Assembly: GCA_013265495.1 (NCBI GenBank)
Contig: MU057398.1
Span: forward strand, 496,001-560,000
DNA length: 64,000 nt
Direction of reading: 5' to 3'
Source of the DNA: Vicugna vicugna
Taxonomy: Eukaryota
This document shows positions 1,044 through 2,597 of the stretch, piece by piece. Below the pieces are notes generated by a model that did not search any database, had not been told where the DNA came from, and saw only the letters and a list, made by a program, of their open reading frames with translations. The stretch's first letter is position 1. Each line of letters opens with the position of its first letter. The translations under genes were made by a program, and so were the position numbers.

Positions 1044-2597
1044 ATGTCTAAGATAATCATAAGGCTGATGTTACTAATGCTAATGTCCTCACTCTCCTTG
1101 GCTGTACAGTGCACCTGCATGGAACCGGGTGACAGGTGGTCCATATACCGGCCTGTATTTTCAGCTTATACTTATCAGCCGAGTCAATGCTATGACTCCG
1201 CTTCAGAGTGCACATATCAGGGAAAATCCTACTGGATTGGCACAATTAAGGCTTATTATGTATCTAGCATCAAATGCTATGGCACACCCGGCAAGCTGGT
1301 GTGCTGGACCAAGCAAACACATTATGGGATGAGTGATGGAGGGGGCGTACAGGACCAGGCACGCCGGCAAGCAGTCCAACAAGCAGTCCAGAGGCAACAC
1401 CGGAAGTTATTACCTACCCGGAAGCCAATAAAACTTCCATCTTTAGCCGAGCCTCGGGATCTGGATCCACAAATAAATGGGCTGTTAGCCGCAGTCCATG
1501 GGATTCTCAATCATTCCAATCCAGACCTGGCTAAAGATTGCTGGCTATGCTTGCGTCCTGGCCCCATCCAGCACCTGGCTTTACCTCTGACAAACCTCAC
1601 TAAGACTTTCACCACAACTCATAGCGATGCCGTTTCTACCACTAGGAGTTCCAGGCTGAACTGGGTACAGCTCGCCTACAAGGCACCAGAATGTTATTTC
1701 AACAATGGAACTAATCCTTTAGAGGGCAATCTAACTATAAATCAATGTATTAAAACCTCTCACTGTATGGGTCTAGGGTGCCAACCCACACAAAGATGGT
1801 GTTCTAATAACGGGACTTATTTTGTATGTGGTGAATTTGCCTACCGGTGCCTCCCTGCCAGATGGGCAGGGTTATGTGCTTTGGCTTATCTCACTCCCCG
1901 AATGGACATTATGCCTAATAATCAAAGTCTGCCCATCCCTGTCATAACTCACCAGCATCCACGGAGAATAAAACGAGCTATACAATTGATCCCCTTGCTA
2001 GTGGGGCTCGGAGTGGCAGCAGGGGTAGGCACAGGAATCGGGGGCATCGCCTCTTCCTCTTATTACTATTATCAGCTTACAGGTGAATTCAGCCACGATC
2101 TCCAACAAATAGCAGAAACCCTGGGAACTCTGCAGAATCAGATTGACTCTCTCGCCGAGGTGGTCTTACAAAACAGGAGGGGTCTGGACTTACTCACGGC
2201 CAAAGAGGGGGGACTATGCCTCTTTCTAAATGAAGAGTGTTGTTTTTATGCCAATCAATCAGGAATTGTCAGAGGAATGGTTCAAGAGTTACAAGACCGA
2301 GTGGAAAAAAGAAAACATATTTTAGATAAGAGCCCATGGACAGGCCCCTGGGGCTGGACCTCCTGGCTGGCACCGTTCATAGGTCCCTTACTCCTGATTT
2401 TTGCAGTTCTGCTGTTTGGGCCCTGTGTCCTAAACTTCCTGACCCGCTTTGTCAGTGAGCGGATAGAGGCTATAAAACTTCAGATGTTAGCCTCCAATTA
2501 TGAGCCCCTGCAACAGGTAAATGATGATGCTTACTCCAACAAGGGTTGTGAAAGCATCAAGAGGGGGGAATGTGAAGGAAAAGCCCAGCTGGGCTAA
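1044..2597 (+). CDS. env: Intact gamma-type retroviral envelope glycoprotein, 517 aa, with RDR-group receptor-binding motif
   Basis: Signal peptide; SDGGGVQDQAR (1332-1364); CWLC; furin site RRIKR (1962-1976); fusion peptide AIQLIPLLVGLGVAAGVGTG; ISD LQNRRGLDLLTAKEGGL; CX6CC (CLFLNEECC); TM helix; YEPL tail motif; several NxS/T sites. Confidence 0.96.
   Translation: MSKIIIRLMLLMLMSSLSLAVQCTCMEPGDRWSIYRPVFSAYTYQPSQCYDSASECTYQGKSYWIGTIKAYYVSSIKCYGTPGKLVCWTKQTHYGMSDGGGVQDQARRQAVQQAVQRQHRKLLPTRKPIKLPSLAEPRDLDPQINGLLAAVHGILNHSNPDLAKDCWLCLRPGPIQHLALPLTNLTKTFTTTHSDAVSTTRSSRLNWVQLAYKAPECYFNNGTNPLEGNLTINQCIKTSHCMGLGCQPTQRWCSNNGTYFVCGEFAYRCLPARWAGLCALAYLTPRMDIMPNNQSLPIPVITHQHPRRIKRAIQLIPLLVGLGVAAGVGTGIGGIASSSYYYYQLTGEFSHDLQQIAETLGTLQNQIDSLAEVVLQNRRGLDLLTAKEGGLCLFLNEECCFYANQSGIVRGMVQELQDRVEKRKHILDKSPWTGPWGWTSWLAPFIGPLLLIFAVLLFGPCVLNFLTRFVSERIEAIKLQMLASNYEPLQQVNDDAYSNKGCESIKRGECEGKAQLG
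2559..2570 (+). other. Polypurine tract
   Basis: AAGAGGGGGGAA directly before the TG of the 3' LTR. Confidence 0.9.

Follow-up and report, generated by a model that had tools for sequence, protein, structure and literature searches.

Very young endogenous retroviruses in which all genes are still open are rare, and they are the main natural models of a virus becoming part of a host genome. The closest described examples are koala retrovirus, CrERV of mule deer, ERV-DC and RD114 of cats, and PERV (porcine endogenous retrovirus) of pigs: young gammaretroviruses with full-length copies, near-identical long terminal repeats (LTRs) and open gag, pol and env frames, present in tens of copies together with solo LTRs, and differing between individuals. 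Other relatives are defined by the envelope protein (Env), such as the simian type D retroviruses (SRV), reticuloendotheliosis virus (REV) and syncytin-Ory1 of the RDR (RD114/type-D receptor) group, the envelope type with the most frequent crossings between host classes, or human syncytin-1 (the HERV-W env, ERVWE1), whose single old locus is fixed and host-controlled, the provirus around it having decayed. The subject here is an intact env open reading frame (ORF) in a 64,000-nucleotide stretch of the Vicugna vicugna assembly GCA_013265495.1 (contig MU057398.1, positions 496,001 to 560,000, forward strand), hereafter the window. This ORF is very probably the env gene in a single copy of an endogenous gammaretrovirus that is very young, multi-copy and insertionally polymorphic and has an RDR-type Env, and the locus is probably an ordinary, unfixed insertion and not a host gene.

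The ORF (1044..2597, forward strand) extends from ATG to TAA over 517 amino acids (aa) with zero internal stops, and is the env of a complete provirus of 9,245 bp with a simple gammaretrovirus architecture, starting 6.2 kb upstream of the window. The 10 kb upstream of the window were examined for the rest of this element, which consists, in order, of a 5' LTR, a primer binding site (PBS), a 1.27-kb leader, gag, a UAG codon, an in-frame pro-pol, env, a polypurine tract and a 3' LTR (Table 1 for the features within the window). Only three sense-strand frames reach 150 codons, namely gag (532), pro-pol (1211) and env (523). The 5' LTR (contig C74:489840-490353) is identical to the 3' LTR at 514/514 positions, and is followed by TTTC and an 18-base PBS, complementary at 18/18 positions to the 3' end plus CCA of tRNA-Thr(TGT), or tRNA-Thr(UGU) in RNA letters; the PBS 15-mer occurs at five genomic sites, three of them tRNA-Thr-TGT genes according to ARAGORN, and the acceptor stem was read in one locus (L057). 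Gag, whose first methionine opens MGGSKSK, has the Pfam domains Gag_MA, Gag_p30 and a single zinc knuckle (zf-CCHC), and pro-pol has RVP, RVT_1, RNase_H, an integrase zinc finger, rve and MLVIN_C, both sharing a common frame across the single UAG. Gag_MA/p30, one zinc knuckle, an integrase C-terminus of the murine leukaemia virus (MLV) type, a UAG between gag and pol, the lack of additional long frames and the 4-bp target-site duplications of the family (see below) are features of class I, gammaretrovirus type. An Rfam GP_knot1 match starts exactly on the gag UAG and is weak (25.8 bits for a gathering score of 67.7, E 0.066), and a regular-expression search of the leader found no strict-consensus splice donor. 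The pol product is about 50% identical to that of MLV, 51% to PERV-B and 52% to REV, and 53-63% to endogenous retrovirus products, themselves unnamed, from lizards and bats, while for an unnamed fragment of 768 aa the identity is 89%; the low identity of pol to named viruses, the RDR-type Env and the host distinguish the virus from the young gammaretroviruses listed above.

An earlier sequence-only reading of the window had already recognized the open integrase frame, the intact 3' LTR and an upstream splice acceptor, of which the first is found to hold rve and MLVIN_C, the second to follow a polypurine tract and the last to be plausible as a polypyrimidine-AG stretch, and the upstream inspection that it recommended revealed intact gag, pro-pol and 5' LTR. 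Its statement that the provirus has near-identical LTRs is right for the pair described here, although the 5' member lies outside the window, so that the pair was invisible to that reading, which may instead have taken two further family LTRs downstream of the provirus (Table 1) for the proviral pair.

The protein itself is a gamma-type retroviral Env: Pfam TLV_coat matches aa 46-470 with 307 bits (E 3.6e-91, cut-off 22.5), and the best solved relatives are syncytin-2 (7oix, TM half) and syncytin-1 (8ouh_D, aa 36-438, E 2.8e-73). All the motifs that the sequence-only reading had listed as needed for fusion are present: a signal peptide, the CWLC motif of the surface subunit (SU), the RRIKR cleavage site, a fusion peptide, an immunosuppressive-domain-like stretch, and the CX6CC loop and membrane anchor of the transmembrane subunit (TM); the sequence motifs among them were located by regular expressions. 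Three hydrophobic segments (aa 1-26, 311-336 and 438-471) occupy the places of signal peptide, fusion peptide and membrane anchor, seven N-glycosylation sequons are present, and the final 27 nt of env lie inside the 3' LTR. In gamma-type Envs, the CXXC of SU pairs with the CX6CC of TM.

The RDR group is defined functionally, by the use of ASCT2/ASCT1 and by cross-interference with RD114 or type D viruses. Four motifs have been described for the RD114/type-D receptor-binding domain by Cheynet et al. (PMC1524976): PCXC, CYX5C, CX8-9CW and SDGGGX2DX2R. Three of the four are kept in the window Env, and its SDGGGVQDQAR string is letter-for-letter that of the syncytin-1 chain in the 8ouh_D alignment, as the sequence-only reading had pointed out. 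The ORF most likely encodes a working viral envelope of RDR type. It shares with the SRV, REV and syncytin-Ory1 proteins the gamma-type organization (CXXC, CX6CC, furin site and immunosuppressive-like domain) in addition to the three receptor-binding motifs, and the SRV-1/4/5 and REV Envs are among its best named matches, at 35-40% identity. It differs from RDR-group Envs in its length (517 aa versus about 560-590 aa), and, unlike type D viruses, it sits on a tRNA-Thr gammaretrovirus backbone. The TM ectodomain is highly similar to that of syncytin-1, yet in contrast to the latter the window env is part of a provirus that is complete, has identical LTRs, occurs in many copies and is apparently not fixed.

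In a quick IQ-TREE analysis of 37 rows, which lacked human syncytin-1, RD114 and baboon endogenous virus, the window Env groups with an ORF of Camelus ferus and an unnamed protein in a clade (100*) that stands next to, and outside, the clade formed by SRV, REV and syncytin-Ory1; a passage of PMC10536682 names RD114 and baboon endogenous virus as RDR-group members. Among named relatives, the C. ferus protein (P0002, 367 aa, automatically named 'syncytin-1', with the motif SDGGGAQDQAR) comes closest, with 71% identity over 55% of the window Env. It represents a different and older family member, common to C. ferus and the vicuna assembly, since its best match in the latter (86%) is a separate locus, C4688, which the window Env matches at 71% with three in-frame stops along the match. 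The earlier suggestion that the provirus is camelid thus gains support of an indirect kind only, from a nearest named relative in Camelus and the best match of that relative in the present genome, a comparison that by itself would point to a camelid other than C. ferus, probably a South American one.

How many copies of this env does the genome contain? A six-frame search of the same 2.03-Gb assembly with the window Env yielded 88 matches, seven of which score as the query itself, an eighth being nearly identical (1220 bits), followed by one match at 98% and by decayed copies from 94% down to about 50%. At least eight loci therefore carry the same Env. Of 1,535 LTR candidates, 40 were scored, none of which falls below 99% identity, and 14 of the 30 loci cut out are solo LTRs. 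Each copy has different flanks, and a perfect 4-bp target-site duplication of its own borders 21 of the 23 insertions with both junctions seen (8/9 proviruses and 13/14 solo LTRs), which indicates integrations and not segmental or assembly duplicates. The seven gap-free full-length copies differ by 2-18 pairwise substitutions over 9,245 bp and form sublineages, defined by shared substitutions and a 3-bp length difference in gag, a pattern that suggests several replication rounds and not a single burst. All three frames are open in six of the seven, including the window copy; in the remaining one, a one-base length difference near the pol start shifts the frame.

The provirus had been called young and probably a recent insertion in the sequence-only reading, and both its fully identical LTRs and its near-identical sister copies bear this out. 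The nine near-identical proviruses have 0, 2, 1, 1, 1, 1, 5, 3 and 4 LTR mismatches in 514 positions. On the clock that Magiorkinis et al. applied (2.2e-9 per site per year), one LTR mismatch corresponds to 0.44 My, zero mismatches to less than about 1.3 My (at 95%), and the pairwise differences between copies to 0.05-0.44 My.

The family is also present in other individuals. In fourteen DNA-type runs, from six studies and under four organism labels, 82-85% of the 31-mers sampled along the locus are present. Logan contigs of one RNA-library run and of three DNA runs (labels B, C and D) were aligned to the provirus minus its 5' LTR; these contigs show presence only, and the 5' flank lies outside the aligned stretch. 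In the three DNA runs, single env contigs reach word depths of 487-494, 451-452 and 305-314, compared with 23.3, 7.3 and 11.9 for unique flank contigs, a ratio of 21 to 62 that points, as a rough figure, to tens of copies, and 10-13 distinct continuations leave the LTR edge per run. In all three, the contigs of the 3' flank (3,801, 1,588 and 3,792 bases) match only from the base after TTTC and carry at least 271 further bases on each side; the 3' flank is therefore joined there to non-LTR sequence. This is positive evidence for an allele without the 3' junction in each of the three runs, the absence of the provirus allele from them being unproven. A search of the assembly itself for an empty site found both 600-bp flanks to be unique and no alternative haplotype contig with a pre-insertion site.

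Selection on env was considered by comparing the young Env with three older, stop-ridden family members, giving dN/dS values of 0.33 for C6707 (nucleotide identity 93.7%, Fisher p 6e-7), 0.51 for C6739 (97.1%, p 0.05) and 0.21 for C4688 (77%, p 5e-37). One side of each pair has been decaying neutrally, so env was held under purifying selection along the lineage from which the young copies come. Spread by reinfection would predict this, and capture of a gene at one locus would not.

Taken together, these observations are consistent with the following life cycle. Transcription would start in the LTR, Gag-Pro-Pol would result from read-through of the gag UAG, and Env would be translated from a spliced mRNA using the acceptor at 929. 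A furin-type cut at RRIKR would separate SU from TM, the two remaining joined by a CWLC/CX6CC disulphide; the RDR-type domain of SU is predicted to bind an ASCT-type neutral amino-acid transporter, and TM to drive fusion, probably only after the viral protease has trimmed the cytoplasmic tail. The family probably spread by repeated cycles that need a working env, i.e. by reinfection of germ-line cells, and its last insertions probably date to the last few hundred thousand years or less. Insertions so recent imply that the lineage may still be active. Of the three options raised by the sequence-only reading (a fusogenic Env, a receptor-blocking Env, or part of a replication-competent endogenous retrovirus), the last fits best, given the open gag, pro-pol and env, the identical LTRs and the tens of near-identical copies.

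Several observations weigh against a young, polymorphic virus with a working RDR-type Env. The evidence for polymorphism consists of short-read contigs and concerns the 3' junction only. In X15, the one RNA-library run aligned, family contigs cover 29/30 bins, the last bin (3' flank) being uncovered, yet 553 of 919 are only 95-99% identical and DNA carry-over is possible, and the joint from leader to env (acceptor near position 7486 of L012, one of the seven gap-free proviruses) is not among the joints listed for this run, whose contigs are uninformative on splicing. The RNA runs X18-X20, which contain 14-20% of the words, carry no weight as evidence. In the window Env, PCXC, the remaining one of the four RDR motifs, is replaced by QCTC, and the use of an ASCT-type receptor is read from motifs. 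Some copies have 3-5 LTR mismatches, or 1.3-2.2 My on the same clock, and not every insertion is then very recent. Finally, the window provirus and two neighbouring LTRs lack a target-site duplication, so that either the assembly in this region or the past of the locus must be complicated.

Two skips in the X15 contigs, 3855>6310 and 4012>7171 (L012 coordinates), were considered as splicing and rejected as deletions, the second being also found in the DNA run X10. Internally deleted proviruses are indeed part of the family: the 4012>7171 form has lost most of pol, has a 14-base filler and occurs in DNA run X10 and RNA library X15, and another form, 7438>8640, has lost about 1.2 kb of env and occurs in runs X5 and X10.

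It is possible, if on the unlikely side, that the family is endogenous and structurally intact and yet extinct as a replicating agent, its copies being the remains of a finished burst, or homogenized by gene conversion, silenced and drifting to fixation or loss. Such a state would agree with run contigs in which neither a spliced env joint nor read-through into the flank was seen, with the many solo LTRs by which the host is already removing copies, and with the one gap-free copy in seven whose pol frame is shifted and the env- or pol-deleted forms that exist as DNA. The 2-18 differences per 9,245 bp and the 0-2 LTR mismatches of most copies leave little time since activity, however, six of the seven gap-free copies keep all three frames open, and the sublineages with shared variants speak for several replication rounds.

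A stronger form of the young-virus explanation is rather doubtful and is proposed here only tentatively: a retrovirus with an RDR-type, ASCT-using Env would be invading, or would until very recently have been invading, the germ line of South American camelids, leaving tens of intact polymorphic copies and possibly a circulating infectious form. If that is true, koala retrovirus in koalas would represent a comparable germ-line invasion. No exogenous form, disease link or polymorphism survey is known for the window virus.

It is most improbable that env has been domesticated at this locus, either as a trophoblast-fusing camelid syncytin or as a receptor-blocking restriction factor of the Fv4 or suppressyn type. 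In favour of it stand the intact env with all fusion motifs and the RDR-type receptor-binding motif. Two RNA libraries labelled 'reproductive system' contain 30-32% of the words of the stretch, and camelids have multinucleate trophoblast giant cells, as described in a passage of PMC8083812. Nevertheless, the same protein is encoded by at least eight loci, none of which is marked out. In this complete provirus, gag and pro-pol are as intact as env and the rest has not decayed, the identical LTRs leave no time for selection at the locus level, and in 3/3 other DNA runs the flank contigs lack the 3' junction. Two properties of syncytins, a single conserved locus and an env preserved in an otherwise decayed provirus, are both missing. 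Env has, moreover, kept a cytoplasmic tail of about 45 aa, and such a tail holds fusion in check in infectious gamma-type viruses. Receptor blocking as a side effect of Env expression is possible for any copy, and is not a property of this locus.

An artefact, whether exogenous virus or foreign DNA in the assembly or one provirus multiplied by the assembler, has hardly any probability: the window copy has no target-site duplication, three LTRs lie within 2 kb and the uneven private variants of the LTRs (9 in 3' LTRs versus 1 in 5' LTRs) may hint at consensus errors, but 8/9 proviruses and 13/14 solo LTRs have unique flanks with perfect 4-bp duplications, older decayed relatives (71-94% Env identity) reside in the same genome, the family occurs in 14 DNA-type runs from six studies, and 10-13 different loose ends leave the LTR edge in DNA runs.

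The missing duplication of the window provirus, which has ATTG upstream and TTTC downstream, can be considered in more detail. TTTC stands between the 5' LTR and the PBS in every copy, and a solo LTR without target-site duplication (L028, contig C10306) likewise ends with CA followed by TTTC; these are exactly the two duplication-less insertions among the 23. We infer that in both, the viral DNA was attached to the host genome with its U5 end untrimmed. This would be an aberrant integration, of a kind that leaves no duplication, and it would imply that four bases, not two, are trimmed when this virus integrates normally. The two neighbouring LTRs, at 0.6 and 1.4 kb downstream of the provirus, are 449-bp variants that lack about 65 bp of the U3 repeat region; they stand in inverted orientation with 351 bp between them. 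Three elements of the same family within 2 kb suggest that the site is a hot spot of integration, has been rearranged or is misassembled; models of a simple inversion between these elements, worked through by hand as a cause of the missing duplications, were rejected, none of them fitting the flanks.

Both LTRs of a provirus are identical at integration. In the seven gap-free proviruses (L012-L018), the variable private columns are unevenly distributed between the 3' and 5' LTRs, in the proportion given above, which could reflect chance, gene conversion or consensus errors.

Table 1. Features of the provirus and of the neighbouring LTRs in the window (nt, nucleotide positions of the window; aa, residues of Env)
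Feature	nt	aa	Strand	Remarks
3' end of pro-pol frame (integrase core rve and C-terminal MLVIN_C)	2..856		+	continues from upstream; 1211 aa in whole
Polypyrimidine tract ending in AG, predicted env splice acceptor	895..928		+	exon start 929; from sequence only
SU	1044-1976	1-311	+	part of env
CYX5C (CYDSASEC)	1188-1211	from 49	+	just 5' of SDGGGVQDQAR
CX8CW (CYGTPGKLVCW)	1275-1307	from 78	+	just 5' of SDGGGVQDQAR
SDGGGVQDQAR, RDR-group receptor-binding motif	1332..1364	97-107	+	regular expression
CWLC (CXXC of SU)	1539..1550	166-169	+	regular expression
RRIKR, furin-type SU/TM cleavage site	1962..1976	ends at 311	+	followed by hydrophobic fusion peptide
TM	1977-2594	312-517	+	part of env
LQNRRGLDLL (immunosuppressive-domain-like) and CX6CC loop (CLFLNEECC)	2166..2243	375-384 and 392-400	+	
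Membrane anchor, hydrophobic	2355..2456	438-471	+	followed by tail of about 45 aa holding YEPL
Polypurine tract AAGAGGGGGGAA	2559..2570		+	directly before 3' LTR
3' LTR, 514 bp, TG..CA	2571..3084		+	U3 with direct repeats of about 104 bp
TATAAAA in 3' LTR	2944-2950		+	
AATAAA in 3' LTR	3017-3022		+	
TTTC after 3' LTR	3085..3088		+	same four bases as between 5' LTR and PBS; not host flank according to contigs of other runs
Second family LTR, 449-bp variant	3689..4137		-	99.5% identical; no target-site duplication
Third family LTR, 449-bp variant	4489..4937		+	99.3% identical; no target-site duplication

Beyond the provirus, the reverse strand carries a neural cell adhesion gene of the L1 family, whose exons (Bravo_FIGEY, Ig and FnIII domains) lie at about 33800-44000, the provirus being located some 30 kb beyond the 3' end of this gene. 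Its C-terminal peptide looks like that of L1CAM, an X-linked gene. The X linkage proposed in the sequence-only reading is accordingly plausible from the presence of an L1-family gene. At 53650-54420, a tandem duplication of about 400 bp gives each strand two successive copies of the same stop-free frames (about 110-130 aa), and a G+C-rich stretch is found near 57000-58200. Elsewhere in the assembly, L060 (contig C5490:10405-13908) is a mitochondrial cytochrome b sequence that now lies in the nuclear genome; its frame shifts after some 196 codons, and W coded by TGA stands where R or G is conserved. Its first 196 aa are 86-90% identical to cytochrome b of many mammals, pigs, bovids and skunks leading and camelids being absent among the 120 matches listed, so that it is uninformative as a marker of the host; at this best-scoring match, the one read among 13, no intact mitochondrial cytochrome b frame was seen.

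A description of the window virus was not found in the full-text literature, subscription papers and supplements being outside the search, and the family seems to be previously undescribed. Alpaca has 176 young versus 96 old endogenous retrovirus loci, among the highest ratios of 39 mammals, according to section 6 and Table 2 of PMC4335370, and the transposons of four camelid genomes have been surveyed in general terms (PMC8605555); passages of PMC10386362 hold nothing that bears on the virus. Lymphoma is frequent in young alpacas, and bovine leukaemia virus is the sole retrovirus discussed in the pertinent portion of PMC8569619.

For the reading of similar loci, an 'intact syncytin-like ORF' needs a check of copy number before it is read as a placental gene. 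If an RDR-type virus is indeed invading the camelid germ line, it would be an unrecognized agent in animals that many people keep and that serve as a source of antibodies. It would then also be a candidate for a contributing role in the lymphomas of young alpacas, a link to the window virus that is pure speculation. The young, multi-copy family described here would be a further example, from an artiodactyl and with an RDR-type Env, and would supply polymorphic insertion markers for camelid genetics; should the lineage still be active, it would be relevant to the health of camelids and to the biological products obtained from them.

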